Assembly (NCBI RefSeq): GCF_900634775.1
Contig: NC_041064.1
Coordinates: 1,508,717 to 1,572,716, forward strand
DNA: 64,000 nt
Direction: 5' to 3'
DNA from: Gouania willdenowi
Lineage: Eukaryota
The notes beneath the pieces were generated by a model that saw nothing but the letters and a program-made list of their open reading frames with translations, searched no databases and had not been told where the DNA came from. Every line of letters begins with the position of its first letter. The stretch's first letter is position 1. A program made the translations under genes and the position numbers. Shown piece after piece: positions 10,061-31,400 of this stretch.

Positions 10061-11799
10061 TGGTGGTCGCTATCTCAACCTTGTTGTGCCTCCAGGTGTA
10101 AAAGCCTTGTGTAAACTTTGCCTAACATCAAAATGTGTTTGAGAGATGCTAGAGCTGGGCAGAGAGGACAGGTGAATATTCTTGCCATACCATTGATGGA
10201 GGTTATTTGGAGATGGGAGCTGGGAGCACATCATACGTAGCTCTGATGATGAAGCTGATTTTGCTTCCATTTTCCACAGCTACTTCCAGCTGAGCGTTCT
10301 CCTCTCCAGGCCTTCTCATCTCGTCCATTGACCCTGCTTGTCACGAGAGACAGCCTTTCCACTTCTTTCAGCTTCCTCCTGACGGAATACCTCCTTAACC
10401 ACCATTTTCTCCTCTTTAATGTTAAGGACTTATGCCAGGTTAGTTTACTTGCTGTAAGGCCAAAGCCTCCTCTTCCCTGTTGAACATGCCTCACAATATT
10501 GTTGTGCCTTATGGCAATGTAGCATGTTGCACCGCATCTAATGGTTTCCATTTCATTCTCAGGGGAGGTGCCATATTGCTGATGGTTTGGCCTCTGGAGA
10601 CCTCCAGGGTCATCTGGAGTCTCACTTTAGAGCACTTGTACTCTCGGTGAGGCTTGTGAAAGGCAACTCAAGGACTCCTTTACCATAGAGACCAATGTTC
10701 TTCAGACAGCGTGGGACCCCAAGCCATTTCTTCATGTAAGAAGTGATTGTTCGCTCCATCTTCTCCACAGTTGTTAGAATGTCTGGTGAATTCTTGTAGA
10801 GCTTATACGGTAGTCCTTTCAGCCCAGGGGATGATGCTGATCTTACACGCCTACAGTATTCTCTACTTCCTTCTATTTTAGAGGGTCAGTCTATTTAGAA
10901 TTCAGGTGATTGTATAATTGGGATGTCACGTGTGATACCAAGCTGTTTGTGGATTTTTATGTCATGGTAAACCTTTTCCACATGCTCCTCCAGCTGCTGC
11001 CTTAGAATTTTCAGGGTTCCACTTTTTTCCTTAGTGAACAGATCCTTGACAAACTTGAAGGGTTTTTATAGAAACATGTTCTTGCGGATTTTTCTTCCTC
11101 TTGCAAAGTTTCCTCAAGTTCTCTGCTCTATGTAAGGTTGCGAACCGGCTTTTGATGTCTCCATGGAGTAGTGATACCATCTCTCTTCATCAGAGGCTTT
11201 ATTCTATGGTTTTTTCAGATGCCTTCTTTCTCGAACCAGTCTTTAGATCTCTTGCTGTCTCTTGGATTTTGCTGCTGCTGCTTTGTCCCTTCTTACATTT
11301 ACACCAAAGCGAGTTTCTCTGTACTGGTAAATAATAGCCCCCATCTCTTTCAGCTTTTTATTTGCTGTGCAAGGAGGGACTGGCAGTTTGCATGAGGGAA
11401 AAAGCTCTTTTTGTCCGTCAAAAGCCACAAAAACAAGCAATCTGTTTGTGGAGCTGTGTCTAGAACTCTACACTTAGCAGACTTATTACAACATTAAACT
11501 ACGAACAGATTGTATTCTGCAAACTTTTTGACATTTGTTGAACTTCTATGATTTTTTTTCTCTAAAAGTTGTCTTTTACAGGATTAATCAGAGCATTTCA
11601 GCTCACAACATTGTCACTTTGCTCTGGAATTGGAAATTTTGTAAAAGTTGCAGCTTTTTTTTATTTTTTATTGTGGATGGTCTTTTCAAACAACCTTACA
11701 GAATAGGCAAAAACAACCCAGAGGTCAAATCATCTAAATATTCATTCAAAAAGGAAGTTACCAGATCAAAGGAGGGCGGAGCAATGAAAAAAAAGGTTT

Positions 11800-11805
11800 T
11801 ATAAA
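11800..11805 (+). promoter_or_regulatory. TATAAA box 44 bp upstream of the TAAR paralog 2 ATG, in the conserved proximal promoter (~11540..11843)
   Basis: ggttttataaatcagtgcaacattagagtgagaggcagaggggtcaaagATGG. Confidence 0.5.
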
Positions 11806-11843
11806 TCAGTGCAACATTAGAGTGAGAGGCAGAGGGGTCAAAG

Positions 11844-12932
11844 ATGGCAACCGTTGATGACGCTGAGTTCTGCTTTTCAAATCTTAACTCATCGTGCAGG
11901 AGGATCGTGCGTCCTCACTCAGTCTCTGTGCTGATTTATATCACCCTCTCCTCCATCTCTGTGATGACTGTGTACCTCAACCTGCTGGTCATCATCTCCA
12001 TCTCACACTTCAGGTATTTAAATATTCTTTCACAGTGTTTAGGAGGTTCTGTTTTCATAAAATCTGATCTGACTTTTCTTTATCTCTCACTTTTCAGGAA
12101 GCTCCACACTCCCACCAACCTCCTCCTCCTCTCTCTGGCTATCTCAGATTTCTTCGTGGGCATCCTTATGATCTTCCAAATAACACTTATTGATGGTTGT
12201 TGGTTGTTTGGGGCGCTGTTGTGTAGTGTGTATTATTATTTGGATTATATCTTCACCTCAGCTTCAATAGGAACAATGGTTCTGCTCTCAGTGGATCGCT
12301 ACGTGGCAGTGTGTGAACCTCTGCAGTATCCCACTAAAGTCACAGCAAACAGAGTGAAAGTATGTGTTTCTCTGTGCTGGATCATTTCTGTTCTCCATCA
12401 GTCTTTTCTTCTTAAAGATAACCTGGAACAACCAGGCCAGTACAGCACGTGCCTTGGGGAGTGTGTAGTAGTTGTCAGTTATGTTGGTAGTATTGTAGAT
12501 GTTATCCTGTCATTTATTGGACCTGTTATTGTCATCGTACTGATGTCTCTGAGGGTGTTTGTGGTGGCTTTGTCTCATGCTCATTCTATGCGTTCTCATG
12601 TTGCATCTGTGAGACCTGCACACGAGTCCCAATTCACAACAAAGAAATCTGAGCTTAAAGCTTTCAGCACAATCAGCGTTGTCATTGTGGTTTTCCTCCT
12701 GTGCATTAGTCCATATTTTTGTGTTTCTATGACTGGAGCAGATTCTGTTTTAAATGCTTCCACTTTGGCTTTTGTGATGTGTCTGTTTTACCTGAACTCC
12801 TTTTTCAACCCTCTGATCTATGCACTGTTTTACCCCTGGTTCAGAAAGTCCATCAAGCTCATTGTTACCTTTCAGATAATGAAGCCTGGCTCCAGTGATA
12901 TTAACCTGCTGCACAGAGAGCGGAAACGCTGA
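11844..12932 (+). CDS. TAAR-family olfactory GPCR, paralog 2. Two exons: 11844..12013 and 12098..12932.
   Basis: Fingerprint NSFFNPLIYALFYPWF, DRY, D3.32 (YYYLDYIF), D5.42 (SIVDVILSFIGP), TM6 CISPYF. Intact ORF. Confidence 0.9.
   Translation: MATVDDAEFCFSNLNSSCRRIVRPHSVSVLIYITLSSISVMTVYLNLLVIISISHFRYLNILSQCLGGSVFIKSDLTFLYLSLFRKLHTPTNLLLLSLAISDFFVGILMIFQITLIDGCWLFGALLCSVYYYLDYIFTSASIGTMVLLSVDRYVAVCEPLQYPTKVTANRVKVCVSLCWIISVLHQSFLLKDNLEQPGQYSTCLGECVVVVSYVGSIVDVILSFIGPVIVIVLMSLRVFVVALSHAHSMRSHVASVRPAHESQFTTKKSELKAFSTISVVIVVFLLCISPYFCVSMTGADSVLNASTLAFVMCLFYLNSFFNPLIYALFYPWFRKSIKLIVTFQIMKPGSSDINLLHRERKR
12014..12097 (+). other. 84-bp in-frame intron of TAAR paralog 2
   Basis: CACTTCAG|GTATTTAAAT…CTCACTTTTCAG|GAAGCTCCAC. 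Coordinates were verified by counting. Confidence 0.8.
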
Positions 12933-13324
12933 CAAAGCAGCCTTTGTTCTCCATCATCATCTTTAATTTGACATTAAAAAATGAATGTGTCATCAAATCA
13001 AATATTGCTGCAGGAGAAACACACTGACTCCTTAAGTTTGTCAAGGACATCATGTATTTATCAGGGCCCGACCACCAAAGGTGATGTGAATGCCCTATTG
13101 TTCCCGTAAGGATTTTTCTTATTCTAAATATTATAATTTTACCGACAATTTACTTTGATTTTTTTTCTAATTTAGATTGTTTACAGTCAGGCCCCTAATG
13201 CTTTGAACAATGATACAATTTCCAGCATTTATCAGTGCAGTAAAGTTTAAACCAATGATTGTTTAATTCTGCTGCAGTCCAGCTTGTTTTCAGTGTCTCT
13301 TAGCTTTAACACAGTTGAATGTAT

Positions 13325-14469
13325 AAGCCTTATCACACTCTCGCTCTGGTTCAATTCTTCCGCGATAGGTCAAAGGTCAAGAAGGATAAACTTGCCATGG
13401 CTGACGGTGTAGGAAGCGAGTCTGACAGAGATTTAAATATTTTTTGCCATTGTAGCGTTGATTCCTTAAATATTGTTTTTGGGCAAATGTGGCATCAGTC
13501 TCCAAGGCAGAAAGACCTACTTAGCTGCTAAAGCTAATGCTGCTAAGGCTAATGCTGCTAAAGCTAATGCTGCACACGAGCTGAAAATAAGTTTTTTCCT
13601 GACGTTTCAACAGTGACTCAGGTTATTGTCACATTTTGTGAACATGAATCGGCTGTTGACATGAAAGTGTTGTTTCACTTAATCAGAATCAGAAAATACT
13701 TTATTAAACACAGAGGGGTTCAATAAAGTATAAGTTTTGTATAAATGGCAAAGAGTGGTGTATTAAAAAAAGCCACACAAATAATGATAATTATACACAC
13801 GCAGAAAAAAGGAGCAATACGACACAAATTAAATGTGCAAATGAAACGACCTGTCCATCGTGCATTTCCTTCAACTTTGTAAAGTTAATTAATATAATAG
13901 CTTAATAAAAAAATAATCATATGGACCTGGTTAATGAATGGTATACCTCATAAATGTACTTTTTCAAAGTAAGAACTGTAATACCTGCCTGATCCACATC
14001 CTTGGTGTCATATAATGGTTCGTTTATATACATGTACATGTCTGTGATATGGAATTGTTAATCATGAAAACATTAAGATTAGACCAAGTCACTTTCCTTG
14101 TATTTTTTAAACTCTACTTGGCAGTAAAAATATTCTGAAACAAACATAGTGTTTTATTATTACAACAGAGCAAGGCAAAAGATTACGCTGCTCATTTTTT
14201 AAAATTTTTTTTTGCGACTCCTCGTCTATTAAAAGCACAAATACTTGTTGAAACTTATATGTTGAAAGCCAATCTAAATGTGTGACGGTCTGAGTGTTGC
14301 ACTTGCAATATATTGAATGTCAGATAGATTAGGCCTACTTTTATTGTACCAAAAGTCAGCTGAAAATCTCAGCGCATAGCACAAACAGCGTCGTGTTGAC
14401 ATTTATATCCCTCTTGACCTATGACCTCCGCTGATCGCGCATGTGCACTTCCAGAGTGTGAAAAGGCTT
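13325..14469. mobile_element. Non-autonomous (MITE-like) DNA transposon of ~1.15 kb with ~17-19 bp terminal inverted repeats and a 2-bp AT/TA target duplication. Present only in the duplicons of paralogs 2 and 3.
   Basis: Termini AAGCCTTATCACACTCTCG … AGAGTGTGAAAAGGCTT. The empty site gaatgtAT|tgagcag is seen in the other four duplicons (e.g. 39865..39880), and the filled site is gaatgtAT[element]ATtgagcag. The element is AT-rich with no ORF. Confidence 0.65.
13524..13571. repeat. 15-bp minisatellite (GCTGCTAAAGCTAAT)n, ~3 copies, inside the MITE-like element
   Basis: Direct tandem repeat. The orthologous position in the next duplicon has ~6-7 copies. Confidence 0.8.
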
Positions 14470-15177
14470 ATTGAGCAGAACTTTAGACGTTCAGCTGAAC
14501 TGTTTAGGTGAATGCACTTTAGATGTATTTATGTTGGAGCAGAGGGTCATCAAGAACATGCAGAACAGTCACCCTCAGGAACCAGGAATGAGTCAACCTG
14601 GTTCTAAAAGTCCAAAGTAAATCAGAAATGCTGCCTGGCTCTTTTTTAAAGGTGTGTTTGATTCCTGGTGGTGATGTACGGAGCCTATATGTTAAATATA
14701 ACATCACTGTCTCTTTATTAGACCTGATTGTGCTTAATGAGTTGATTGTCTTCATGTCCCTATAATAACTGACATCTCTGTGTTTTTGACAATATTTGGA
14801 GATTATTATTGTATTTCAGTCTTTATGTAAATGTTCCATCAGCCTGCGCACTGTAACGCTGTTTGTAGCTCTGAGCTTTTTTCACATTGGTCTCTAAATA
14901 AACGTTGCTTCATGAAACCTTGTCCAGCAGAGTTTTCATCTTATTTAACAATGGACTGAACAGGGAAAAGACAAAGGACAGTTTGTAATAAATCCTGAAG
15001 CCCAAATATTTACAGATGTAAAGCTCCTCCTACATTTTACATGTGAGCTACTTTTTACTTTTACTCGAGTAGATTTTTACACCAGTAACTTTACTTTTAC
15101 TTTAAGTACATTTTTAATCAAAGTAACAATACTTTAACTTAAGTAGATTTTTTTTCTGTACTCTCTCCACCCCTGGA

Positions 15178-15191
15178 CACACACACACGCA

Positions 15192-15223
<32 letters not shown>

Positions 15224-15230
15224 CACCCAC
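15178..15230. repeat. (CA)n / (CACG)n microsatellite
   Basis: cacacacacgcacgcacgcacgcacgcacgcacacacacacacaca. Confidence 0.9.
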
Positions 15231-15664
15231 CCCCTGTCACTCTCAATAATCAACTTACAAGCAAACGCTAGCATCAGGCGAACTACCAGAGAGGTAGTAT
15301 ATTTCCCTGCTTTGAAATGGAAGAAATGTAGGATGAGGGATTGACTTTCTCTGCTGTTGATATTTTACATTTCAGGTGCTGTGTCATGATCGTGGTGCTT
15401 CCAAGTCAGGTTATATCACTTTTGCAAAGCTAGCACGTCATGCTTTTTTTAGTTTGTTTTGTTTTTTGTTTTGTGAAGCGTGAAATACTCCCACATGTTT
15501 GAGGATTTCAGTCAAACTTTTTTTCTCTGTGTCGGTCATGTTTCTTTTTAAAATATGATTTTTTTAAACTTTGTTGACAAAGCTCTGCAGGTGAAGCAAA
15601 CGGCTCTGCAACATAGGGAGTAGGGTGGTTCACAAAAATCATTTTCACCAAATTTTTCCAGATC

Positions 15665-17520
15665 GCTTTTTGCTTTGTTCCAATTAACATTGTTAACCCC
15701 CAGCATCGGGGGTGGTTGGTCTGCTGGTTGGGTGCGCCGGGCCTCGTGGGCGCTGTTCCGAGGCGGGGGTTCCCTGGGGGTGGGCCTTTGGTTGGGGCGT
15801 CTTGGGACGCGTTCTCCTGCCATCCGCCTGGGAGCTGGCTGCGGTTCGGTGTGGCGCCGCACTGCCTTTGGCAGCTTCGGGGGGGTGTCTCGTGTCGGTG
15901 TGTGTGTGGCCTCCGTGGGGAGGGGGGGGGCTCTGCTGGTGGCACTTAGTGTCGGGTGGCGGAACCTGGCGGGACCTGGCTGGGGGTGCTTGGGTTCGCC
16001 CGATTATTGGTTGGTGGGTGGCGGGATGGCCCTGTTGGGCGGCTGATAGCGTCCTCTCTGGTCGGGGGGGCCGGGGCTGCCTCCCTGTAGAGGGTTTTTG
16101 CATCATCGTGCTCTGCGGGCCTGTGCTGGGCTGATGTGGGCGCGGACTTCTCTCCTGCCCGGCTGCTCTCTGTTGCGGCGGGGGGGCAGCATCGTGCTGT
16201 GGTGCGTCGGGGGTCGCCCCCTGGACTCCTGGGGGGTGTGGCTGGTGCCTGGCCCTGCCTGGGGGGTGGTAGTGCCGCCGTGCCCCGTGGGGTCTCCGGC
16301 CGTGCTGCTCGGCGCGTCCCTGGGGTCCGCTGTGCCGCGAGCCCGTCTGCGCCATCTACCCTCTCCGGTGGCCCGTCGTGTGGACGGGCCGGGCTCGCAC
16401 CAGACAGGCCTCCTAAATGAACACCTCACTTCACTCCCAGCTGGTCTGGCTCACTTACTTGGTGCACCACACACCCATACCCAACCCTTGGGGGGCTGGA
16501 TGATGGGGCTGGGGGTGGAGGGTGCCACCGCCTATGCTACTAAATAGTGGCACGGGGGTGGCATTCCCACCTCAAATTGCCCTACCAATCCCTCCAATTT
16601 TAATAGCACCTTAAAACACCACCCCCGGAGGGTGCGACCACAACTTCCACCCTCCGGATCTATTGCACCACATACACATATATACACAGAGGTTAGACAG
16701 GGAGCACTGGGCTTGGCCGGTCCTGGCGGGGGTCATCCGGGGTGGGTGGTGCGGGCTGCGCTCTTGCATACCAGTGGGTGCGGCGTGGGGTGGCCCCTGC
16801 TTGGGCGGTACCCGAATTACCGCCTCTAGTTTGTGCATGCCGGTGTGGCGGTCTGGCTGGGCCCTTGGGGGTGAGTGGGGCGGGGGTGCGAACTTTAGCA
16901 ATTACTAAGGCGCATTGCGCTGGGGGTATAAAAAAAAAAGTGACCTGGGGGGCTGGGTTAACCTAGCCCCCCAAACCCTAACCCGCTGACGAATGCACGC
17001 CGGCTGCCCGTTCGTCGCGGCTCTGGTCGTTTGCTGAGCATGGGCCTTGGCCCCTCTGTTGGGGTCTCGGGGGAGGGGGCTCTCCGGGCCCTCCCCTTGA
17101 GGGATTGGGTGCGGGGGTGGTGGGGTGGATGTCGCCTTGGGGTTGGGAGTGGGGTGCGCCGGTTCTTCGGCTCCTAGGTGCTTTCTCGGGTGTGTATGTG
17201 GGGGCAGTGGCTACCTCTCGACTTGGTGTCTTGAGGGTGTCTGGGGGGGCTCGGCCAGTTGGGGGTTGCCTGGGCTCCCTGGGTTTGCAGTGGTGGTTTC
17301 TTGCACATACATCTGTCTACGATGCGCTAGCATGCCTTGGACTGTGGAATAAAACTTGTAGTGGGCTTAACTTCAGACACGTTGATCCCAAATACCTATT
17401 TCAGGTATTACCACTCACTCCTTCCCTCTGTCCACAGCCACCACCATTATAGTTAAGCCTCACGCCTACAACTTCACATCTCACTCCACTTTACAATAAT
17501 CAACTCTTCCCCACCCTTCC
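15665..17520 (+). repeat. Copy 2 of the GC-rich G+T-skewed repeat (~1.85 kb)
   Basis: Near-identical to 29475..31400. It contains CCCTAACCC at ~16970 and the hairpin aaatacctatttcaggtatt near its 3' end. The long ORFs on both strands (e.g. 15693..16355, -) are Pro/Gly/Arg-rich compositional artefacts. Confidence 0.55.
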
Positions 17521-20500
17521 ATTTCTCTACCTTGAATCTCTCCTGTCTGCTCCCTTCATCTCAGCACAGTTCTCACAGTCTGTTGTCTGATGACATGGAA
17601 ATGATCTTGTAGAGATCTGATTCAGAAACAAAGTTCCTAGGTGGTAGCAGTTATGGAGAGAGGAGGGGACGCAGTGTCATTCGGCACAAACATCCTGGAG
17701 AATAGAGAGATAAGCCAGCCTTGACACAACTGGTTGTATGGGGGAGCCACTGAAAATAACAATTGTTTTCGGCCAGGCTAAGTACAATTTCTGTCAGCCT
17801 TGAGTTCTCTGGGTCTCGGGGTAATATATCCAATATGGTGGCCATTAACTTTTGAGCTGGGCTGTCAACTTCTCCAAGTTAGATTCCATCCCGCGTAGAA
17901 GATCAAAAGTTTCATCCTGCTTGCTTTTTAGTTCCTTTATTGCATGAGTCTAAGTGTTAAGAGCCCTGCACACTCCATTAGTCATGACAGGCAGTCTTCC
18001 CAAAACAGCTGCCAACGTTGTGTGAACTTTGCAATGAATCAGAAAACTGGCAGCTCCAAACAGCAGAACACCTGTTATCATCAAATTATGTAAACATCTT
18101 CAATATCCTCAATGGAAAGGATCTGCCATTCCTGCCAGGAGTCCATTGTGTATCCGGCTGTGAACGTTCTGTCAGGACAGGCAGGCTTTCCTCTGCTCAT
18201 TCTTTTTGTCAAAAAAATGGGGTTGATTCTATTGAGAGACCAGCTGATCAATTCCATAATTTCAGTTTTGGGTAGCAATGCAGAGATAAGCTCCTATTAG
18301 ATTCTGACATAAGAGAGTACAAGACAAAAGAGCAGAAAGAAGGGCTGATAAGGGCAGAGGGGAGCAAGGTAAGAAGATGATGTTCAGATGAAGAGTTTTG
18401 CTTATGGGGCAACACCCACCAAGCACAGTGCTTCTAATAATTATGATCAAGAGACTGGAGGCAAAACCAGCAATATCTCACATGCAAGAATAAAGAAGCA
18501 AGGCTCATCTGAAGTTCTTTACCCTTCATTGACAACAACACAGGACAGAGAGGGTGTATCCAATCTTCAGGATGCTGCATCTTTCACAATGACAGCAAAG
18601 TGCTTGGGACATGATGTCAACAATTACTCAATCAATTCAGCAGCTGTGCATAGAGCTCACTATAGGTACTGAGCAAAGGTGGCATCTCAGTGGGAGTCTT
18701 AAGTTTTTCGTGATCCATCTTTTCATTGGTATGGGAAACTTTTGCCTCAAGCCTGCCAGCGCAACCATGACGACAGGGATGCAGTCATTGCCAGTGGGGT
18801 AGATTTTGAAGAACTTTTGGGTGTCCCAGTGACAACTGATGGGTCTGGAAAATAGGCGAGTGATATAAAATAAGTTTGTTTAGTATAAATAGAGAGAGAC
18901 TTTTATTGACCATACTTACCTTTACATTATTTAAGTTCTGTTTCATAATATTTCATGAGATGTCTTACTATGGGATGTTGCCTCTGCTACATTCCTCAGA
19001 ATACCTATTTCACTTTGCCAATCTTGATTGGCTGATGAAACGCATTGGTCCGATGGGAGAACCTCCCACCTCCTACAGGAGGAGGGGACGGACAGGTGCG
19101 TGTCATTCTTAAACCTCTTCTGCTTTCAGCTACCTTTCTTTTTTCCTGCCGACAAACTCTGGCAGGGCTAATGGCTGGCAGCCTCTCACTACAGTGACAG
19201 CTCTGCTGCTAGCTCTTGGCCGTAAGACCAGAGCTCCCAGACCCCAGCTTACCATAGCTGCCGTTCCAGACCACAGCACACATTTCCCCCGGGCTCCTGC
19301 AGACGTTGGTCTCCCTCCTGGGCCCACAACTTGGTGTCTGGCCCGGACCCAGCTCCTATACCATGGTGTACAAGCTGCGGCCCAGCTGCTGTTCAGAGGC
19401 GACGCTGTCCTGCATCCTTGCAAGCACCTTTGCTAGCGCGAGCTAAACCACCTGCTCTCCTGCCTGTATCAGCAGCCATGAAAGACGAGGCTCTTCTGAC
19501 CGAGGGATTGGGATGCATCGTGGCTCGTCTTTGTCCATGCAGTGGAAAATTATTTATCAAGGACGGACACAAGACCTGCTCCGGGTGCCTGGGCTTTGAG
19601 CACGCCCGGATGGCTATCGAATACCCGGCGTCCTGCAAGCACTGTGCCGCATTCAGAGCCCGGTACCTCCCCTGGAGACTGGTGCGGCTTCTGAGACCCG
19701 AGCAAGGCCCCTCTTCCCCCTCATCTCTGGCCTGCCATTGTCGTGGAAACCACCAGGTCCTGCTACGAAGGGAAGAAGCTGCCTCTCTCCAGAGGCGCTC
19801 TGAGACAGACTCTCCCTTTCTTCCCCGAGCTTCTCGAGAAAGTGGTTCGCCTCTGGCAGACACGCCCGTTCACTGGGAGGGCCCCGGTTGCAGGCTTCTC
19901 TATCCTTGACTGCGAGGCGATAGAGGCCCGTAGACTGCTCAGGATGCCACAGGTGGAACCGCTCGTAGCTGTGCACCTGCTCCCATGTCGGCCTTCTGTG
20001 TCTTCACGGAGACCCATGCTACCGTCGAGATGGGACTGTCTGCAGTCGGACCTGTCCCGTAGGACTTACACAGCCGCTGGCCTCTCGGTCAGGGCCATGA
20101 ATGTCCTCTCCCTCCTCACCGCCTACTAAGGCTGAACTTTGTGAGGATTTCACTGCGTCCCATAACCCTGTAATAATAGAGTAGTTGTCTATGGTGACGA
20201 ATGTGTGCCTCTGAACCCAAGCCTGCTCACTACAGACTATGGAGAAATTCATGGGCAATATGGTGATCCAGGAGCGTGCTCGCTGGCTCAATCTTGCTAG
20301 GCTGACAGACGCCGAAAGACGCCCTATCTTCAATGCAGCAGCGCTGCAAAGCGAAGAAGAGGGAGGATGAGCACTGCTGCACCAGCGCAGCAGTCCCAGC
20401 GCGCACAGGCACGCAGAATGAAAAAGTTGGCCTGACCTCTTTCTTCTCCCACCTCGTGTCAAAAACAGTGATGTGCTCATAGCTCACGCCTCTGGGCAAA

Positions 20501-20521
20501 TGGCCAGAGGCATCCCTAAAT

Positions 20522-21933
20522 GTGAAAGCGTTGTCTGCCACAATAAACAGGGTGATAGCGGGAGACATTATCTCTACTCGAAGGGAGGCTTTAGCCTCTT
20601 CCTGTCAGAGACGGCGCTCCTCTTGTGATCACTTTGTCCCCCAGAACAAGCAGTGCATGCTTGCTCCGAGGGGTATGGCGCTGGCAGCAGGGCTCCTCAT
20701 CTGTGGGAACATTACCTCTGGGGTCGTGCGGCCCGCTGCTGCCAGGGGGCTCTGCCATTGCGTGGGCAAGCCACCTGCGGCTATGCGGAGGCACCATCTT
20801 GTCGCTCTTGTGTCTGCATGCAGCCTGCCCTCAGGAGAGGATGCCACCACTCTGCTGACGGTGCCTCTCTCAGTGAGGGCACCGGAGCACCTGTCCTCTC
20901 TTTCCCTGAGGATAGACAGGAGGGGGCTTGCAGTCCCGCCCTGGGTGTTATGGATGTTATCGAAGGATTACAAACTGCAGTTTGCATCTGTCCCTCCCGG
21001 TTTCGGCGGCATAGTGCACTCCCGGGCCTGGGGAGTTTTGGGCCACATTTTACACAAGGAAATTTCTTCTCTGTTGCACAAAGGAGCTGTGTCGGAATCT
21101 GCTGTCGCAGGCGGAAGGCACGGTTTTCCATCCACGACCACAGAGTCTGGTACTGTGGGCCTGGCCCCTGAGTGGCACAATCTGTTGGCTATAGGGTTAT
21201 CACAGGACGTTATCTCTACCATACAGAGCACTCAGGCCTCCTCTACTAGGTCTTTTAATGACTTTAAGTGGAGGGTATTTAAGAACTGGTGTCTCCAGGG
21301 AGGCCACGTCCCTTTCCAGTGCCTGGTGGGTGTGATTCTGTCATTCTTGCAGGGCCTGATTGACAAGTGCAAAGCCTTTTCCATGGGGAAAGTGTATTTG
21401 GCGGCGATCGCCACCTGTCATTTGGGCTTTGCGGACAAACCGGCGCGTCAGCATCTGCTGATATGCAGCTTTATGAAGGGGGCGTGCAGGCTCCTCCCCG
21501 TGTCCACATTGATGGTTCCACCATGGGATCTGGCGGTGGTTCTGGAGTGTCTTAAGGGACCCCCGTTTGAACCGATGGGTGAGACAAACCTAAAGTTCGC
21601 CTCTCTTAAAACTGTCTTGTTACTGGCTCTGGCTTCAACCAAGAGGATCAGTGACATCCACGTGCTCTCGGTTCACCCGTCGTGCACTCAGCTTTCCTCA
21701 GGTGACGCAAGGATCATTCTGAGACCCAACCTTTGTGCCGAAGGTGGTGGGCTCATGTTCTCCCATTGACCTGCTGGCCTTTTCTGCCTCACAGGGTGAT
21801 CAGCGGCCTCACTTATTGTGTCCTGTTTGTGCGATCCATACTTATATGGATAGGACAAGGACCCTCAGGAGGAGCAAACCAGCTGTTCGTCTCCTGGGCC
21901 AACTGTCATAAGGGGAAGCCTCTGTCAAAGTAA
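20522..21933 (+). pseudogene. Tyrosine recombinase (integrase-like) gene of the DIRS/Crypton-type element, frameshifted. Its C-terminal catalytic part is split by the LINE insertion at 22060 and resumes at ~24230..24310.
   Basis: …WDLAVVLECLKGPPFEPM…LKTVLLLALASTKRISDIHVLSV… (box-I Arg context). …LCPVRAIHTYMDRTRTLR…LFVSWAN…(K)PLSK… After the insertion comes …QDICAPAS.SSPHTFVRCYMLDV…, the motif that carries the catalytic Tyr in DIRS-type YRs. Confidence 0.6.
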
Positions 21934-22059
21934 CGCCTGTCATACTGGGTGGTGGAGGCTATTGCTTTGGCTTACTCGAATCAGGGTCTGCAGCCGCCTA
22001 TGAGTCTGCGTGCACACTCGACTTGGGGACTTGCCACATCCTGGGCCTTGTTTAGGGGA

Positions 22060-24230
22060 GTGTCTGTCAGAATCAGAATCAGAATCAACTTTATTGACCA
22101 AGTAATGTATTGAATACACATGAGGAATTTGTCTTGGTGAACCTGTGCTCTCTCTGATAGTGTAAACATTAAATAAAAACAATCAACTAGAATAAAGAAA
22201 AATAAATAAAAAAGAAGTATAACATAAATATAAATAGTTAGACTAAGAACAATCAACTAGAAAAAAGAAAAATAAATAAAAAAAGTTAAAATAAATATAG
22301 AGTACTTAGACTAATATGTGCAAACTAAATAAAATAACAAGATAATGATAATAGTAATAGTAATAATAATAATAATTATTATAATAATGAAATGAAATAA
22401 AAATACAATAATAATAATAATAATAAGATAATACTGCAGTAGTGCATTGATGAGTAGTGCAGGTGAACATTTAAATGAAAATATTATGTCCATGAACATT
22501 TTCAGTGACAGGTTGATCCAGGGTTGTTATGTTTAGTTCCAGGTTATTTCACAGTAACAGAAACAGGTCTGACACTCTATGACTGTTTAGTGTTGATCAG
22601 AGTGACAGCCTGGGGGAAGAAACTGTTTTTATGGCGGGTAGTTTTGGCGTACAGTGATCTGTAGCGTCTGCCGGAGGGGAGGAGTTTGAACAGATTGTGT
22701 GCAGGGTGTGAGGGATCTGCAGTGATGTTACCTGCCTGTTTCCTGACCCTGGACAGGTATAGGTCTTGAATGGAGGGCAGATCAACACCAATGATCTTTT
22801 CTGCAGTCCTGATTATCCTTTGTAGTCTGTGTCTGTCTAGTTTGGTTGTAGATCCAAACCAGACAGTGATGGAGGTGCACACAACAGACTGAATGATGGA
22901 GGTGTAGAACATGATCAGCAGCTCCTGGGGCAGGTTGAACTTCCTCAGCTGACGCAGGAAGTACATCCTCTGCTGTGCCTTTTTCCTGGTTGTGTCTATG
23001 TGGGAGGTCAACTTCAGGTCCTGTGAGATTGTGGATCCCAGGAACCTGAAGGAGTCCACGGTAGCCACTTTGCTATTCAGAATGGTAAGGGGGTGGGGGG
23101 GTGGGATTTCTCCTGAAGTCCACTGTCATCTCCACAGTCTTGAGCGGGTTCAGTTCCAGATGGTTCTGACTGCACCAGAGAGCCAGCTGTTCCACCTCCT
23201 GTCTGAAGGCAGACTCGTCCCCATCCCTGATGAGACCGATGATGGTGGTGTCGTCTGCAAACTTCAGGAGTTTCACAGAGGGGTCCCCTGAGGTGCAGTC
23301 ATTGGTGTAGTGGGAGAATAGAAGTGGGGAGGGAACACACCCCTGAGGGGCGCCAGTGCTGAGTGACCGGGTCCTAGATGTGATACTTCCCAGCCTTACT
23401 TGCTGCTTCCTGCCAGACAGGAAGTTGGTGATCCACTGACAGGTGGAGGCCGGCACTGTGAGCTGGGTGAGTTTCTGGTGAAGGATGTTCGGGATGATGG
23501 TGTTGAACGCAGAGCTGAAATCCACAAACAGGATCCTAGCGTAGGTCCCTGGGGAGTCGAGGTGATGCAGGATGTAGTTCAGTCCCATGTTGACTGCATC
23601 CTCGACAGACCTGTTTGCCCGATAGGCAAACTGCAGGGGGTCCAGCAGGGGTCTTGTGATGTCCTTCAGGTGGCTCAATACCAGCCTCTCAAAGGACTTC
23701 ATGACTACGGACGTCAGGGCAATGGGTCGATAGTCAATGAGTCCTGTGATGGCAGGTTTCTTTGGGACTGGGATGATGCTGGAACTTTTGAAGCAGGATG
23801 GTACTTCACACAACTCCAGTGATGTATTGAAGATCCGTGTGAAGATGGGAGCCAGCTGCTCAGCACAGGATTTCAGGCAGGAGGGAGATACTGGTCCTGG
23901 AGCCTTTTTGATCTTTTGTTTCTTGAATAGCTGGCACATATCTCTTTCATTGATCTTCAGGGCTGAGTCCAGGTGATGGGCTGATGCTAATGAGCTGGGG
24001 GGTGGGTGTGAAAACCTGCAGTAAAAGCTATTCAGGTCTTCAGCCAGTCATATTGTTACCTGCAGGGTGGGGGGAGGGTTTCCTGTAGTTAGTAACCTCA
24101 CACAGGCCTTTCCACACTTCTGAAGGGACTTTGTTTCAGAAGCTTTGTTTTAGCTTCTCAGTGTAGCACCTCTTGGCTACTCTGATCTCCTTGGTTAGTG
24201 TGTACTTAGCCTGCTTAAACAGGACCCAGG
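22060..24230 (-). mobile_element. 5'-truncated LINE (L2/CR1-like) 3' fragment nested inside DIRS-like copy A. The RT C-terminal half and (AAT)n / A-rich tail region lie at 22080..22450.
   Basis: RT ORFs 23073..23939 and 22577..23068 (-) have the FADDTT motif (…LLKFADDTTIIGLI…) and the common fish LINE C-terminus …LYLSRVRKQAGNITADPSHPAHNLF…QAVTLIN. The segment is absent from the otherwise collinear copy B (36130..36240 is contiguous). Confidence 0.7.
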
Positions 24231-25329
24231 ACATCTGTGCGCCGGCGAGCTAGTCCTCGCCCCACACCTTTGTCCGCTGTTACATGCTGGACGTATCAGC
24301 CCCGTGCGTGACACTGTCATGATGTAAGCATGTTCCTGCCCCACTGAGCTGGTGACGCTTGGTAAGCTTGTTTGCACTACTGGAGTTCCCATATCCCATA
24401 GTGAGACATCTCAAAAAATATTTTGAAATAGGACCATAGGTTACTTTCGTAACCCCGGTTTTATGAGTCATATGAGTGAGATGTCTCACCAGACTGCCCT
24501 TCTTTCTCGAACAAGGATAAAAGGTTTGTTGCTTACTAAGAATGACACGCATCTGTTCTTCCCCTCCTCTTATAGAAGGCGGGAGGTTCTCCCATCTGAC
24601 TGATGCGCTTCACCGGCCAATCAGGATTGACAAAGTGAAATAGGTATTCTGAAGAATATAGCAGAGGCGACATCCCACAGTGAGACATTTCACTCATATT
24701 ACTCATAGAACCAGGGTTACGTTAGTTTATGATATCTGTGAAAGTTGAGCATTATCTGGTTGAGCTATGAAAACTTTGAAAAAGGGTGCCACCCTTAACT
24801 GGCCTCATATTGGCTCTATTTTTTTACTCAATAACAAATACAAGTTCAAATTTGGCAAACTACAATACTTCCAAAACAACATACTCAGTTTAAAGTCAAC
24901 AAAAAATGTGCTCCTGCGATTTTGATATTGCTGGTGTACTAGCCAAATCCATGACTTGGCTACCTTGACAGGTTGATAAAGGGCTGAGTGACTGATGCGC
25001 CCACGGTGTACACCTTTCACTGTCAAGTTGAGATAAATCACGTACAACTTCTTGATGTATAATTATTTTGTCTTTATTTTATGCTTTATTGCTTCCAAAC
25101 TAATGTGTCCATTAAAACAATCAGTTCACCTGTAAACCTCTGCACTTCACATGGTATAGCATCAAACAGTGTTCGTGGTGTAGTGGTCTTGCGGTCAGAA
25201 ACCGTTTGAGCTCCACCCCATCAAGCAACCAACCCTTGTCCCGGAAGCGGCATCACATATACAGGTATAGTCTGTGATACGCTCAATTAAAACCCACACT
25301 TGTATACACCAATAAAATGGCCATTTCAG

Positions 25330-25520
25330 CTGGTATACCGTTTGAAGGTATAGGAATGGACCTCAGCAGGCCGTACGGTATCTGGGGTACCACTTGGGTT
25401 AACCCCAGTTCAAAAAAGACGTGAAGGGGTTCTAAGGTATGGCTGAAGTTAATTCTGAACTTTGCTGACCAGAAAGGTGCCTCAGATCCGGTCTAGTGGA
25501 CAAAACAGTGTCAGCAGGCG
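25330..25520 (+). pseudogene. Residual gypsy-like pol fragment (RT/RNase H junction) upstream of TAAR paralog 3
   Basis: Aligns to 37860..38110 and 54700..54950 (…ggtaccacttgggtt…cc.cagttcaaaaaagac.t.aaggggtt…aaaggtgcctcagatccggtc.agtgga…agtgtcagcaggcgtttaa.caggtaa). Confidence 0.5.
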
Positions 25521-25654
25521 TTTAATCAGGTAAATTATTTTCAAACAACCTTACAGAATAAGCAAAAACAACCCAGAGGTCAAATCATCTAAATATTAAT
25601 TCAAAAAGGAAGTTACCAGATCAAAGGAGGGCGGAGCAATGAAAAAAAAGGTTT

Positions 25655-25660
25655 TATAAA
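25655..25660 (+). promoter_or_regulatory. TATAAA box 44 bp upstream of the TAAR paralog 3 ATG
   Basis: Same conserved promoter sequence as the other copies. Confidence 0.5.
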
Positions 25661-25698
25661 TCAGTGCAACATTAGAGTGAGAGGCAGAGGGGTCAAAG

Positions 25699-26787
25699 AT
25701 GGCAACCGTTGATGACGCTGAGTTCTGCTTTTCAAATCTTAACTCATCGTGCAGGAGGATCGTGCGTCCTCACTCAGTCTCTGTGCTGATTTATATCACC
25801 CTCTCCTCCATCTCTGTGATGACTGTGTACCTCAACCTTCTGGTCATCATCTCCATCTCACACTTCAGGTATTTAAATATTCTTTCACAGTGTTTAGGAG
25901 GTTCTGTTTTCATAAAATCTGATCTGACTTTTCTTTATCTCTCACTTTTCAGGAAGCTCCACACTCCCACCAACCTCCTCCTCCTCTCTCTGGCTATCTC
26001 AGATTTCTTCGTGGGCATCCTTATGATCTTCCAAATATTACTTATTGATGGTTGTTGGTTGTTTGGGGCGCTGTTGTGTATTGTGTATTATTATTTGGAT
26101 TATATCTTCACCTCAGCTTCAATAGGAACAATGGTTCTGCTCTCAGTGGATCGCTACGTGGCAGTGTGTGAACCTCTGCAGTATCCCACTAAAGTCACAG
26201 CAAACAGAGTGAAAGTATGTGTTTCTCTGTGCTGGATCATTTCTGTTTTCTATCAATTTTACCTTTTTAAAGATAACCTGGAACAACCAGGCCAGTACAG
26301 CACGTGCCTTGGGGAGTGTGTAGTAGTTGTCAGTTATGTTGGTAGCATTGTCGATGTTATCCTGTCATTTATTGGACCTGTTATTGTCATCGTACTGATG
26401 TCTCTGAGGGTGTTTGTGGTGGCTTTGTCTCATGCTCATTCTATGCGTTCTCATGTTGCATCTGTGAGACCTGCACACGAGTCCCAATTCACCACAAAGA
26501 AATCTGAGCTTAAAGCTTTCAGCACAATCAGCGTTGTCATTGTGGTTTTCCTCCTGTGCACCTGTCCATATTTTTGTGTTTCTATGACTGGAGCAGACTC
26601 TGTTTTAAATGCTTCCACTTTGGCTTTTGTGATGTGTCTGTTTTACCTGAACTCCTTTTTCAACCCTCTGATCTATGCACTGTTTTACCCCTGGTTCAGA
26701 AAGTCCATCAAGCTCATTGTTACCTTTCAGATAATGAAGCCTGGCTCCAGTGATATTAACCTGCTGCACAGAGAGCGGAAACGCTGA
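25699..26787 (+). CDS. TAAR-family olfactory GPCR, paralog 3. Exons 25699..25868 and 25953..26787.
   Basis: Same motifs as paralog 2. Its distinct residues are IFQILLIDG, CIVYYY, ISVFYQFYLFKDN, TM6 CTCPYF. Confidence 0.9.
   Translation: MATVDDAEFCFSNLNSSCRRIVRPHSVSVLIYITLSSISVMTVYLNLLVIISISHFRYLNILSQCLGGSVFIKSDLTFLYLSLFRKLHTPTNLLLLSLAISDFFVGILMIFQILLIDGCWLFGALLCIVYYYLDYIFTSASIGTMVLLSVDRYVAVCEPLQYPTKVTANRVKVCVSLCWIISVFYQFYLFKDNLEQPGQYSTCLGECVVVVSYVGSIVDVILSFIGPVIVIVLMSLRVFVVALSHAHSMRSHVASVRPAHESQFTTKKSELKAFSTISVVIVVFLLCTCPYFCVSMTGADSVLNASTLAFVMCLFYLNSFFNPLIYALFYPWFRKSIKLIVTFQIMKPGSSDINLLHRERKR
25869..25952 (+). other. 84-bp in-frame intron of TAAR paralog 3
   Basis: CAG|GTATTT…TTTTCAG|G. Coordinates verified. 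Confidence 0.8.
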
Positions 26788-27179
26788 CAAAGCAGCCTTT
26801 GTTCTCCATCATCATCTTTAATTTGACATTAAAAAATGAATGTGTCATCAAATCAAATATTGCTGCAGGAGAAACACACTGACTCCTTAAGTTTGTCAAG
26901 GACATCATGTATTTATCAGGGCCCGACCACCAAAGGTGATGTGAATGCCCTATTGTTCCCGTAAGGATTTTTCTTATTCTAAATATTATAATTTTACCGA
27001 CAATTTACTTTGATTTTTTTTCTAATTTAGATTGTTTACAGTCAGGCCCCTAATGCTTTGAACAATGATACAATTTCCAGCATTTATCAGTGCAGTAAAG
27101 TTTAAACCAATGATTGTTTAATTCTGCTGCAGTCCAGCTTGTTTTCAGTGTCTCTTAGCTTTAACACAGTTGAATGTAT

Positions 27180-28365
27180 AAGCCTTATCACGCTCTCGCT
27201 CTGGTTCAATTCTTCCGCGATAGGTCAAAGGTCAAGAAGGATAAACTTGCCATGGCTGACGGTGTAGGAAGCGAGTCTGACAGAGATTTAAATATTTTTT
27301 GCCATTGTAGCGTTGATTCCTTAAATATTGTTTTTGTGCAAATGTGGCATCAGTCTCCAAGGCAGAAAGACCTACTTAGCTGCTAAAGCTAATGCTGCTA
27401 AAGCTAATGCTGCTAAAGCTAATGCTGCTAAAGCTAATGCTGCTAAAGCTAATGCTGCTAAAGCTAATGCTGCACACGAGCTGAAAATAAGTTTTTTCCT
27501 GACGTTTCAACAGTGACTCAGGTTATTGTCACATTTTGTGAACATGAATCGGCTGTTGACATGAAAGTGTTGTTTCACTTAATCAGAATCAGAAAATACT
27601 TTATTAAACACAGAGGGGTTCAATAAAGTATAAGTTTTGTATAAATGGCAAAGAGTGGTGTATTAAAAAAGCCACACAAATAATGATAATTATACACACG
27701 CAGAAAAAAGGAGCAATACGACACAAATTAAATGTGCAAATGAAACGACCTGTCCATCGTGCATTTCCTTCAACTTTGTAAAGTTAATTAATATAATAGC
27801 TTAATAAAAAAATAATCATATGGACCTGGTTAATGAATGGTATACCTCATAAATGTACTTTTTGAAAGTAAGAACTGTAATACCTGCCTGATCCACATCC
27901 TTGGTGTCATATAATGGTTCGTTTATATACATGTACATGTCTGTGATATGGAATTGTTAATCATGAAAACATTAAGATTAGACCAAGTCACTTTCCTTGT
28001 ATTTTTTAAACTCTACTTGGCAGTAAAAATATTCTGAAACAAACATAGTGTTTTATTACAACAGAGCAAGGCAAAAGATTACGCTGCCCATTTTTTAAAA
28101 TTTTTTTTTGCGACTCCTCGTCTATTAAAAGCACAAATACTTGTTGAAACTTATATGTTGAAAGCCAATCTAAATGTGTGACGGTCTGAGTGTTGCACTT
28201 GCAATATATTGAATGTCAGATAGATTAGGCCTACTTTTATTGTACCAAAAGTCAGCTGAAAATCTCAGCGCATAGCACAAACAGCGTCGTGTTGACATTT
28301 ATATCCCTCTTGACCTATGACCTCCGCTGATCGCGCATGTGCACTTCCAGAGTGTGAAAAGGCTT
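27180..28365. mobile_element. Second copy of the MITE-like TIR element, orthologous by duplication to 13325..14469. It carries the expanded minisatellite.
   Basis: Same TIRs and the same AT flanks. The minisatellite is at 27379..27472, with ~6 copies against ~3. Confidence 0.65.
27379..27472. repeat. 15-bp minisatellite (GCTGCTAAAGCTAAT)n, ~6 copies
   Basis: The ORF track shows the artefactual (AKANA)n reading at 27328..27516. Confidence 0.8.
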
Positions 28366-28986
28366 ATTGAGCAGAACTTTAGACGTTCAGCTGAACTGTT
28401 TAGGTGAATGCACTTTAGATGTATTTATGTTGGAGCAGAGGGTCATCAAGAACATGCAGAACAGTCACCCTCAGGAACCAGGAATGAGTCAACCTGGTTC
28501 TAAAAGTCCAAAGTAAATCAGAAATGCTGCCTGGCTCTTTTTTAAAGGTGTGTTTGATTCCTGGTGGTGATGTACGGAGCCTATATGTTAAATATAACAT
28601 CACTGTCTCTTTATTAGACCTGATTGTGTTTAATGAGTTGATTGTCTTCATGTCCCTATAATAACTGACATCTCTGTGTTTTTGACAATATTTGGAGATT
28701 ATTATTGTATTTCAGTCTTTATGTAAATGTTCCATCAGCCTGCGCACTGTAACGCTGTTTGTAGCTCTGAGCTTTTTTCACATTGGTCTCTAAATAAACG
28801 TTGCTTCATGAAAGTTTGTCCAGCAGAGTTTTCATCTTATTTACCAATGGACTGAACAGGGAAAAGACAAAGGACAGTTTGTAATAAATCCTGAAGCCCA
28901 AATATTTACAGATGTAAAGCTCCTCCTACATTTTACATGTGAGCTACTTTTTACTTTTACTCGAGTAGATTTTTCCACCAGTAACT

Positions 28987-29035
28987 GTGTGTGTGTGCAC
29001 GCACGCACACACACACACACGCACACACACACACC
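28987..29035. repeat. (GT)n/(CA)n microsatellite
   Basis: tgtgtgtgtgtgcacgcacgcacacacacacacacgcacacacacaca. Confidence 0.9.
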
Positions 29036-29474
29036 CCCTGTCACTCTCAATAATCAACTTACAAGCAAACGCTAGCATCAGGCGAACTACCAGAGAGGTG
29101 GTATATTTCCCTGCTTTGAAATGGAAGAAATGTAGGATGAGGGATTGACTTTCTCTGCTGTTGATATTTTACATTTCAGGTGCTGTGTCATGATCGTGGT
29201 GCTTCCAAGTCAGGTTATATCACTTTTGCAAAGCTAGCACGTCATTCTTTTTTTTAAATTTTTTTCTTTTGTTTGTTGAAGCGTGAAATACTCCCACATG
29301 TTTGAGGATTTCAGACTTTTTTTCTCTGTGTCGGTCATGTTTCTTTTTAAATTATGATTTTTTCAAACTTCGTTGACAAAGCTCTGCAGGTGAAGCAAAC
29401 GGCTCTGCAACATAGGGAGTAGGGTGGTTCACAAAATTTATTTTCACCAAATTTTTTCAGATCGCTTTTTGCTT

Positions 29475-31400
29475 TGTTCCAATTAACATTGTTAACCCCC
29501 CGCGTCGGGGGTGGTTGGTCTGCTGGTTGGGTGCGCCGTGCCCCGTGGGCGCTGTGCCGGGGCGGGGGTCCCCTGAGGGGTGGGTCTTTGGTTAAGGCGT
29601 CTTGGGACACATTCTCCTGCCGTCCACCCGGGAGCTGGTTGCGGTTCGGTGTGGCACCGAGCTGCCTTTGGCGGCGTTGGGGGGTGTCTCGTGTTGGTGT
29701 GTGTGTGGCCGGGGGTGGCCTCCGTGGGGAGGGGGGGTTGTGCTGGTGGCACTTGGTGTGGGGTGGCGGGACCTGGCTGGTGGTGCTTGGGTTCGCCGGC
29801 TTTTTGGGTGGTGGGTGGCGGGATGGCCCTGCTTAATAGCATCCTCTCTTGTCGGGGGGGTCAGTGCCGCCTCCCTGTAGAGGGCGTTGTATCGTCGTGC
29901 CCTGCGGGCCTGTGCTGGCCCTGATGTGGGCGCGGGCTTCTCTACTGCCACTCCCTGTTGCGGCAGGGGGGGCGCTTCGGGCTGGCGTGCGGCGGGGGTC
30001 ACCCCCTGGACTCCTGGGGGGTGTGGCTGGTGCCTGGCCGCGTCTCGGGGGTGGTGCCGCCATGCCCCGTGGGGTCTCCGGCCGTGCTGCTCGGCACGTC
30101 CCTGGGGTCCGCTGTGCCGCGTGCCTGTCTGCGCCATCTACCCTCTCCGGTGGCCCGCCGTGTGGACGGGCCGGGCTCGCACCAGACAGGCCTCCTAAAT
30201 GAACACCTCACTTCACTCCCAGCTGGTCTGGCTCACTCACTTGGTGAACCACACACCCATACCCAACCCTTGGGGGGCTGGATGATTGGGCTGGGGGTAG
30301 AGGGTGCCGCCGCCTATGCTACTAAATAGTGGCACGGGGTGGCATTCCCACCTCAAATTGCCCTACCAATCCCTCCAATTTTAATAGCACCTTAACACAC
30401 CACCCCCCGGAGGGTGCAACCACAACTTCCACCCTCCGAATCTATTGCACCTCATACACATATATACACAAAGGTTGGACAGGGAGCACTGGGCTTGGCC
30501 GGTCCTGGCGGGGGTCACCCGGGGTGGGTGGTGCGGGCCGCGCTCTTGCATACCAGTGGGTGCGGCGTGGGGTGGCCCCTGCTGGGGCGGTACCCGAATT
30601 ACCGCCTCTAGTTTGCGCACGCCGCATGCTGGTGTGGCGGTCTGGCTGGGCCCTTGGGGGTGAGTGGGGCGGGGGTGCGAACTTTACCAATTACTAAGGC
30701 GCATTGCGCTGGGGGTATAAAAAAAAGTGACCTGGGGTGTGTTGGGGGGCTGGGTTAACCTCGCCCCCCAAACCCTAACCCGTTGACGGGTGCCCGCCGG
30801 CGGCCCGTTTGTCGTGGCTCTGGTGGTTTGCTGAGCATGGGCCTTGGCCCCTCTGTTCAGGTCTCGGGCGGGGGGCTCTCCGGGCCCTCCCCTCGGGGGA
30901 TTGGGTGCGGGGGTGGGGGTGGTGGGGTGGATGTCGCCTTGGGGTTGGGGGCGGGGTGCGCCGGTTCTTCGGCTTCGGCCTAGGTGCTTTCTCGGGTGTG
31001 TATGTGGGGTGCAGTGGCTACCTCTCGACTTGGTGTCTTGAGGGTGTCTGGGGGGCTGCTCGGCCAGTGGGGGGTTGCCTGGGCTCCCCGGCCTCTGCTC
31101 TTTCTACTAATCTGGCTGCGTCCTTGGGTCCGGGGCAGCGCTTGGGTTTGCAGTGGCGGTTTCTTGCACATACATCTGTCTACGATGCGCTAGCATGCCT
31201 TGGACTGTGGGATAAAACTTGTAGTGGGCTTAACTTTAGACACGTTGATCCCAAATACCTGTTTCAGGTGTTACCACTCACTCCTTCCCTCTGTCCACAG
31301 CAACCACCATTATGGTTAAGCCTCACGCATACAACTTCACATCTCACTCCACTTTACAATAATCAACTCTTCCCCACCCTTCCATTTCTCTACCTTGAAT
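29475..31400 (+). repeat. Copy 3 of the GC-rich G+T-skewed repeat
   Basis: Collinear with 15665..17520. It has an extra ~57 bp at 31085..31145, which copy 1 also has but copy 2 lacks. Confidence 0.55.

Follow-up and report, generated by a model that had tools for sequence, protein, structure and literature searches.

Probable concerted evolution with variation kept in the ligand-facing segments of TAAR13c-like receptor genes in the clingfish Gouania willdenowi

Related receptor families and the clingfish array

Concerted evolution in which variation is kept in the recognition segments is known from the peptide-binding regions of the major histocompatibility complex (MHC), the clustered protocadherins and the primate olfactory receptor clusters. 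The genes described here encode trace amine-associated receptors (TAARs) and lie in a stretch of 64,000 nt of Gouania willdenowi (NC_041064.1, positions 1,508,717-1,572,716, forward strand), referred to below as the window, from whose first nucleotide all coordinates are counted. Six intact paralogous open reading frames (ORFs) are found in the window, five of 1089 bp and one, P6, of 1083 bp. The genes themselves are already annotated in RefSeq. The reading favoured here is that the array probably evolves in concert and that, probably through selection, the segments coding for the ligand-facing parts of the receptors remain variable. The pattern is familiar from arrays of chemosensory and immune genes, and the clingfish array is a new example of it. 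The copies are as follows, with positions in the transmembrane helices (TM) placed by Ballesteros-Weinstein numbering.

P1, 6971..8059, minus strand: XP_028291866, TAAR13c-like; inverted; its TM4 motif (ISHT) diverges most among the copies, and position 5.42 is E
P2, 11844..12932, plus strand: XP_028291867; exon 1 at 11844..12013, intron at 12014..12097, exon 2 at 12098..12932; 334 aa
P3, 25699..26787, plus strand: XP_028291868; TM4 motif FYQFYLF, TM6 residues TC
P4, 38392..39480, plus strand: XP_028291869
P5, 48782..49870, plus strand: XP_028291871
P6, 60305..61387, plus strand: XP_028291872; 6-bp deletion in TM7 (7.35-7.36)
Intron of P2, 12014..12097, plus strand: 84 bp, GT..AG, after codon 56 in intracellular loop 1, at an HF|RK junction

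Among TAARs, the class III receptors (the neoteleost 'family A') offer the closest comparison. They have likewise undergone lineage-specific tandem expansion (Azzouzi et al. 2015, PMC4415300; Hussain et al. 2009, as cited in PMC4256280), and like the clingfish copies they are two-exon genes whose intron interrupts intracellular loop 1 close to codon 55, between an aromatic and a basic residue (F|R); this is also the position of the clingfish intron (PMC4415300). D5.42 is conserved in class III TAARs, as it is in the clingfish copies with the exception of P1, which has E. Teleost TAARs have been reported to be under positive selection (Hussain et al. 2009, as cited in PMC4256280), and for class III in particular a raised ratio of non-synonymous to synonymous divergence (dN/dS, or ω) has been reported together with positive selection; the cichlid mean is 0.43-0.51, compared with an ω of 0.8 here. 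There are two differences. Most class III TAARs have lost D3.32 while keeping D5.42, a combination associated with non-classical amine recognition (PMC4695389), whereas all six clingfish copies keep D3.32. The clingfish copies are also far more alike (97%) than the class III sets studied and show clear signs of homogenisation. Neither PMC4415300 nor PMC4786312 mentions gene conversion.

The zebrafish diamine receptors TAAR13c, 13a, 13d and 13e (PDB 9m2s, 9m3s, 9m40 and 9m0x) have the D3.32 and D5.42 motif and the TM7 motif in common with the clingfish copies. Compared with TAAR13c, the clingfish copies have I or T in place of W6.48, a two-residue deletion in TM2, and the intron. In mammals, positive selection has been reported around the pocket of the recently duplicated TAAR7 and TAAR8 (Eyun et al. 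2016, PMC4786312). The sites concerned, like the variable ones in the clingfish, occupy the extracellular helix ends, and positions 3.33, 4.57, 4.61 and 5.42 are common to the selected sites of TAAR7/8 and the variable sites of the clingfish copies. The mammalian study used tree-based tests on species and paralogs, however, and in the clingfish recombination among the copies undermines such tests.

The spliced coding sequence (CDS) is 1005 bp long and encodes 334 residues (332 in P6). A first-pass annotation of the window had given the CDS as 1089 bp; this is the length of the ORF in five of the six copies, but it includes the intron, which is in frame and free of stop codons. The spliced proteins of P1 to P6 are identical to the RefSeq entries listed above, all of which are named 'trace amine-associated receptor 13c-like' and come from the same 39-Mb contig. 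A seventh paralog, XP_028291865, lies outside the window and was compared as a protein, and the array therefore consists of at least seven tandem copies. Since the nearest proteins of other fishes are only ~67% identical to the clingfish copies, sequence comparison indicates that the array is a lineage-specific expansion. The intron is 100% identical across the six copies, while the exons carry 19 synonymous changes. Its retention would lengthen intracellular loop 1 by 28 residues.

The proteins match Pfam 7tm_1 (E=3e-44, residues 46-298). Seven helices are predicted by an AlphaFold2 model built from 58 sequences; the model is poor (predicted local distance difference test score, pLDDT, 57) and was used for helix limits only. 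The best relatives with solved structures are zebrafish TAAR13c, 13a, 13e and 13d (E=2.5e-65, HMMER, residues 4-328). The top 15 PDB matches are all TAARs (E 2.5e-65 to 5e-39), and the next is the β1-adrenergic receptor (E=4e-34). All six copies possess the TM7 fingerprint N-S-[FL]-F-N-P-L-I-Y-A-L-F-Y-P-W-F at residues 290-305; the TAAR fingerprint of Lindemann et al. 2005 is said to be NSxxNPxx[YH]xxx[YF]xWF. C3.25, D3.32, DRY and NPxxY are kept in the six copies. By alignment to TAAR13c, D106 corresponds to D3.32 and D191 to D5.42, and these two residues form a di-cation recognition motif (Li et al. 2015, PMC4695389). Because all six copies have D3.32 and an acidic residue at 5.42, they are predicted to be diamine or polyamine odorant receptors. 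Conservative changes from D to E are seen at the amine-binding acidic positions, at 5.42 in P1 and at 3.32 in XP_028291865. The W6.48 of the CWxP switch is absent, the motif being C-[IT]-[SC]-P with I or T at 6.48. In a percomorph clade of 110 homologues, position 6.48 is occupied by L, V or I throughout and D3.32 is present in 81 of the 110.

Divergence of P2 and P3 and the mosaic structure of the array

The most informative pair of copies is P2 and P3, for which several parts of the repeated units have to be distinguished.

Near-identical tract, 11683..15090 (partner 25538..28986), plus strand: 30 substitutions in 3404 aligned bp
Central CDS of P2, 12183..12743 (partner 26038..26598), plus strand: from the end of TM2 to extracellular loop 3 (ECL3)
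Older part of the P2 unit, 15193..25336, plus strand: collinear with 28997..37340; divergence 5-9% overall
Tandem repeat of 37 bp, 15054..15152, plus strand: lies exactly where the near-identity of P2 and P3 ends (3' end)

Between P2 and P3 there are 18 nucleotide differences, spread over 15 codons, and nine residues are changed (T/L, S/I, L/F, H/Y, S/F, F/Y, L/F, I/T and S/C). The first-pass annotation had estimated 15-20 nucleotides and nine residues, in agreement with these counts, but had described the changes as almost all non-synonymous, which is not the case. Six of the changed codons are purely synonymous and two more contain a synonymous step; the Nei-Gojobori method gives 8 synonymous (Sd) and 10 non-synonymous (Nd) differences, with dS=0.034, dN=0.013 and dN/dS=0.39. 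The S/I difference is at 3.26. The assignment of IS/TC to 6.48-6.49 was correct, but the T/L site, placed earlier in TM3, belongs to the outer, extracellular end of TM2 (2.62 when counted, ~2.64 by the TAAR13c alignment), and LHQSFLL (4.55-4.61) lies within the TM4 helix.

The flanks present a different picture. In the 388 bp after the stop codons (12933..13320 vs 26788..27175) there are 0 differences and the first real one is at 13337, so the flank is near-identical as claimed, but the one difference claimed for it came from a 3-base offset in the coordinates. Within the near-identical tract the exons differ at 18 of 1005 positions and the non-coding sequence at 12 of 2399 (0.5%). The coding sequence is 3.6 times as divergent as its surroundings (Fisher p=0.0008), which bears out the central observation of the first-pass annotation. 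The excess is local: 17 of the 18 differences fall in the central CDS, where divergence reaches ~3%, as in any other paralog pair.

The explanation first put forward for this contrast was a very recent duplication that produced P2 and P3, followed by the fixation of new pocket mutations by positive selection. The near-identity of the flanks (0.5% over 2.4 kb), the greater divergence of the exons, a dN that is ~2.4-2.6 times the flank divergence, and a site-model test that is significant at nominal thresholds all speak for it. The wider comparison of the two units does not. The units are collinear over ~13.8 kb, and beyond 15090/28986 their identity drops to 87-97%; at non-CpG sites the divergence is 4.1-7.1% in the far ~10 kb compared with 0.43% in the near flank. 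The duplication is therefore not very recent. Diversifying selection acting on new mutations fares no better, as dS is raised even more than dN and is ~6 times the flank divergence. In addition, 12 of the 18 differences are states that occur in other paralogs, the private differences (three non-synonymous and three synonymous) have accumulated at the flank rate, and the central CDS of P3 is not closest to that of P2. Recent duplication with adaptive change is accordingly largely refuted, and we consider it very unlikely.

A stretch of 3.4 kb that is nearly identical within units that are 4.1-7.1% diverged points instead to recent homogenisation within an old duplicate. We read the 3.4 kb as a recent tract of interlocus gene conversion or unequal crossing-over. 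Two other sources of the far-flank pattern were considered. CpG hypermutation was rejected as the cause of the divergence, since the 4.1-7.1% holds at non-CpG sites. Independent transposon insertion is unlikely to account for the homology of the far flanks, as the match is collinear over ~10 kb and is confined to the P2 and P3 units.

If the copies exchange sequence, their CDSs should be mosaics, and several observations agree with this. From the end of TM2 to TM7, P3 is no closer to P2 than it is to P1, P4 or P5, and from the C-terminus on no difference separates P2 from P3; both the 5' and the 3' ends of the CDS are homogenised. The best codon tree of the CDS groups P2 with P5, while the flank groups P2 with P3. 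Of 231 pairs formed by the 22 informative sites, 137 (59%) fail the four-gamete test, and the minimum number of recombination events (Rmin) is 12. A distance-dependent incompatibility test resembling the pairwise homoplasy index (PHI) gave no significant result (p=0.67). With incompatibility high whatever the distance between sites, this outcome does not count against recombination. A run test of the GENECONV type was dominated by blocks with indel differences and is given no weight here.

The individual states tell the same story. For nine of the 18 differences between P2 and P3, both states are present in other paralogs in the window. Three more (F and Y in TM4) match XP_028291865, which gives the 12 shared states already mentioned. 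At seven of the nine amino-acid differences the P3 state is that of XP_028291865, including the complete FYQFYLF in TM4 and TC in TM6. The private differences amount to 6/1005, or 0.6%, which matches the 0.5% of the flank. With the private differences at the flank rate and 12 of 18 states shared, the excess of coding divergence needs no new adaptive mutations; the comparison of paralogs indicates that the coding differences between P2 and P3 are mostly standing paralogous variation, either retained or imported.

Variable columns of the CDS are adjacent to one another more often than expected (16 vs 3.1). Seven of these pairs share one paralog pattern, and three of the seven straddle codon boundaries; examples of adjacent changes are found at codons 191/192, 260/261, 291/292, 273 and 320. 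Tandem multi-nucleotide mutation, or micro-conversion with diverged copies as donors, would fit this excess, which inflates codon-model tests.

Could the identical flanks and the mosaic CDSs have been produced during assembly or polishing, by mis-assigned reads? Highly similar tandem arrays are prone to assembly collapse and cross-polishing, and the units of this array are 97-99% identical. However, the six ORFs are intact with conserved splice sites, the units are anchored by distinct flanks, indels and transposon insertions, and the differences are not scattered randomly but gathered at positions that vary throughout the family. We regard falsely identical flanks and chimeric CDSs as improbable.

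The explanation that we favour is that interlocus gene conversion, possibly with unequal crossing-over, repeatedly homogenises the copies of the array. In the latest event, the old P2 and P3 units would have become nearly identical over the 3.4-kb tract. Homogenisation would reach exon 1 and the intron as well as the flanks and the sequence coding for intracellular parts, and would be incomplete in the segments encoding those halves of TM2-TM7 that are extracellular and face the ligand. In these segments a limited set of alternative states would be shuffled among the paralogs in short patches, such that each copy carries a different combination. The first-pass annotation had also mentioned gene conversion that spares the hotspots, and this suggestion is close to the data: the flanks and CDS ends are homogenised, and in its central CDS P3 is no closer to P2 than to the copies P1, P4 and P5.

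By analogy with the MHC, protocadherin and olfactory clusters, of which we speak from general knowledge, the clingfish array would be alike in its homogenised flanks and constant parts, in the mosaicism of its motifs, and in a dS that is raised together with dN in the recognition segments; it belongs to a different gene family.

Possible selection for diversity

What keeps the copies different? The persisting variation is most likely due to selection for differences between the receptors, but this is not proven. It would act by removing conversions that erase differences between receptors with distinct ligand specificities. Synonymous variants linked to the selected ones would be kept along with them, and this would explain the raised synonymous diversity in the same segments.

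Changes were counted across the six copies as tree-free minimum numbers, and 19 synonymous and 42 non-synonymous changes were obtained (ω 0.82). The extracellular half contains 38 of the 42 non-synonymous changes (p=7e-9) and 15 of the 19 synonymous ones (p=0.004); measured against the intracellular synonymous sites and the invariant intron, the extracellular concentration has p=8e-5. The hotspot motifs listed in the first-pass annotation vary across all six copies as described. The positions at which the paralogs differ coincide with those that vary across the 110 percomorph homologues (p=9e-6), and by family-wide entropy 3.26 ranks 4th, 4.56 5th and 4.57 9th of 334 positions. When the CDS is partitioned by this entropy, again without a tree, ω is ≈1.9 at family-variable positions (28 non-synonymous, 6 synonymous) vs 0.38 elsewhere (14 and 13; Fisher p=0.014). 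Eight codons are multi-allelic with two or three non-synonymous changes and no synonymous change (2.62, 3.26, 4.55, 4.56, 4.58, 6.56, 7.36 and 7.39). Positions 3.33, 5.42, 6.48 and 7.39 are known ligand contacts in TAARs or aminergic receptors, and 4.57 and 5.43 are contacts in OR51E2 (PMC11364543). The variable sites among the clingfish copies include the contact positions 3.33, 5.42, 5.43, 6.48 and 7.39.

Site models, run with our own codon-model code, gave ω=0.84 under M0. In the comparisons of M1a with M2a and M7 with M8, twice the log-likelihood difference (2ΔlnL) was 25.6-29, with 13% of codons at ω≈6. Sites with high posterior probability are 2.62, 3.26, 4.55, 4.56, 4.58, 4.61, 6.48, 6.49, 6.56, ECL3, 7.34, 7.36 and 7.39, and there is one further site in the C-terminal tail. 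These models assume one tree and single-nucleotide mutation, and the test value was compared with simulated nulls that have no positive selection and consist of 13 segments with independent trees. The procedure used for the simulations fixes branch proportions and reproduces the value for the real data (28.99 vs 29.02). In the absence of tandem mutation, 0 of 110 null runs reach 29 (95th percentile 19.4, maximum 26.7). When nine codons with tandem changes were masked (chosen by eye, seven of them in pairs with the same pattern), 2ΔlnL was still 27.0.

A number of results weigh against selection for diversity. dN/dS is at or below 1 in all 15 paralog pairs. This is one half of an outcome that the first-pass annotation had taken to speak against its reading; the other half, a flank divergence equal to synonymous divergence, is not what is seen, given a dS ~6 times the flank value. 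Values of ω are ~0.9 in the extracellular and 0.4 in the intracellular half, and the contrast is not significant (p=0.24). At the family-variable positions, an excess of ω over 1 (1.7-2.1) is not significant when tested against their own synonymous counts (p=0.18-0.30). With 7% tandem events, the rate estimated from the non-coding flank, a 2ΔlnL of 29 is reached in 5% of null runs at p0=0.63 and in 15% at p0=0.30, and with 20% tandem events it is reached in 23%. Because nulls with recombination and tandem mutation reach the observed value, the site-model evidence is not robust here; the M7/M8 check proposed in the first-pass annotation is significant nominally (26-29), and the empirical null probability is below 0.01 without tandem mutation and 0.05-0.23 with it. 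Furthermore, of seven consecutive residues in TM4 six are variable, and these could not all point into a single pocket, and the hotspots 3.26, 4.55, 4.58, 6.49 and 6.56 are not canonical contacts.

These points lend themselves to a neutral account, in which conversion and unequal crossing-over shuffle variants at the least-constrained positions and there is no selection for diversity. It is a serious rival, although we consider it clearly less probable than the explanation with selection. An ω close to but below 1, both in the extracellular half and overall, pairwise ratios that never exceed 1, and null runs that reach the test value in 5-23% of cases are all compatible with it. Synonymous changes co-localise with non-synonymous ones, and mutational or conversion events are indicated by the surplus of substitutions at neighbouring bases, three of which cross codon boundaries. 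That the hotspots have a high entropy across the family may itself reflect low constraint. A lack of constraint is harder to reconcile with the eight codons that have acquired two or three independent non-synonymous states and no synonymous change, or with the many changes that switch polarity inside helices (S/H/Y/C, S/I/F, I/T and M/I/T). The difference between family-variable and family-conserved positions (ω≈1.9 vs 0.38), a test value above all 110 recombination-only null runs, and six intact ORFs with C3.25, D3.32, DRY and NPxxY kept also argue against it. On the sequence comparisons, selection for diversity at pocket positions is plausible but is not demonstrated.

Concerted evolution with selected variation may have gone a step further. 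It has been considered that short-tract conversion acts as a combinatorial generator that shuffles cassettes into new pocket combinations, which selection then keeps. The putative cassettes may be the end of TM2, 3.26, TM4 4.55-4.61, TM6 6.48-6.49 and TM7 7.34-7.39. We offer this only as a tentative suggestion.

Surrounding sequence and significance of the array

Besides the receptor genes, the window contains repeats and mobile elements. Two of these distinguish the P2 and P3 units.

Insertion present in the P2 unit only, 22009..24226, minus strand: 2.2 kb; contains a reverse-transcriptase ORF at 23073..23939 (PF00078)
Minisatellite of 15 bp, GCTGCTAAAGCTAAT, 13524..13573, plus strand: 3.3 copies, with 6.3 copies at 27379..27473

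The minisatellite is the sole sizeable indel within the near-identical tract. Transposon-derived ORFs are found between the receptor genes at 454..1494 (minus strand), 20522..21769 (plus), 23073..23939 (minus) and 44333..45097 (minus); one has an endonuclease domain (PF03372) and one has the reverse transcriptase domain (PF00078). The other two of these long ORFs have no Pfam match. GC-rich intergenic stretches (up to 58%) coincide with the transposon-derived ORFs.

Only ~160 bp upstream of the start codon (11683..11843 in P2) are common to all six copies and nearly invariant, and TATAAA is present at 11802..11807, ~40 bp before the ATG of P2. The shared segment is likely a common core promoter. 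An element of ~450-557 bp is found downstream of P2, P3, P4 and P6 (14469..15025, 28365..28921, 39868..40424 and 61787..62238, respectively). It is 98-99.8% identical between units, above the identity of the genes, and may represent either a repeat of recent origin or a regulatory element that has been homogenised. In P6, the deletion in TM7 drops two residues, and the copy also has the C7.40F change and a tandem CC>GA change (P320D); its function may be altered or reduced.

The array shows how identical flanks and clustered coding differences can mimic rapid adaptive divergence when, as here, they mostly represent mosaicism produced by gene conversion between copies of greater age. In young chemoreceptor arrays with conversion of this kind, the standard site-model tests cannot be relied on. 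If cassettes are indeed shuffled among the copies, the locus would be a germline analogue of cassette diversification in a family of diamine receptors that lacks the W6.48 switch. The locus also supplies a small natural set of predicted diamine receptors with differences at ~30 positions, and this set could be used to map the residues that set ligand tuning in TAARs with D3.32 and D5.42.

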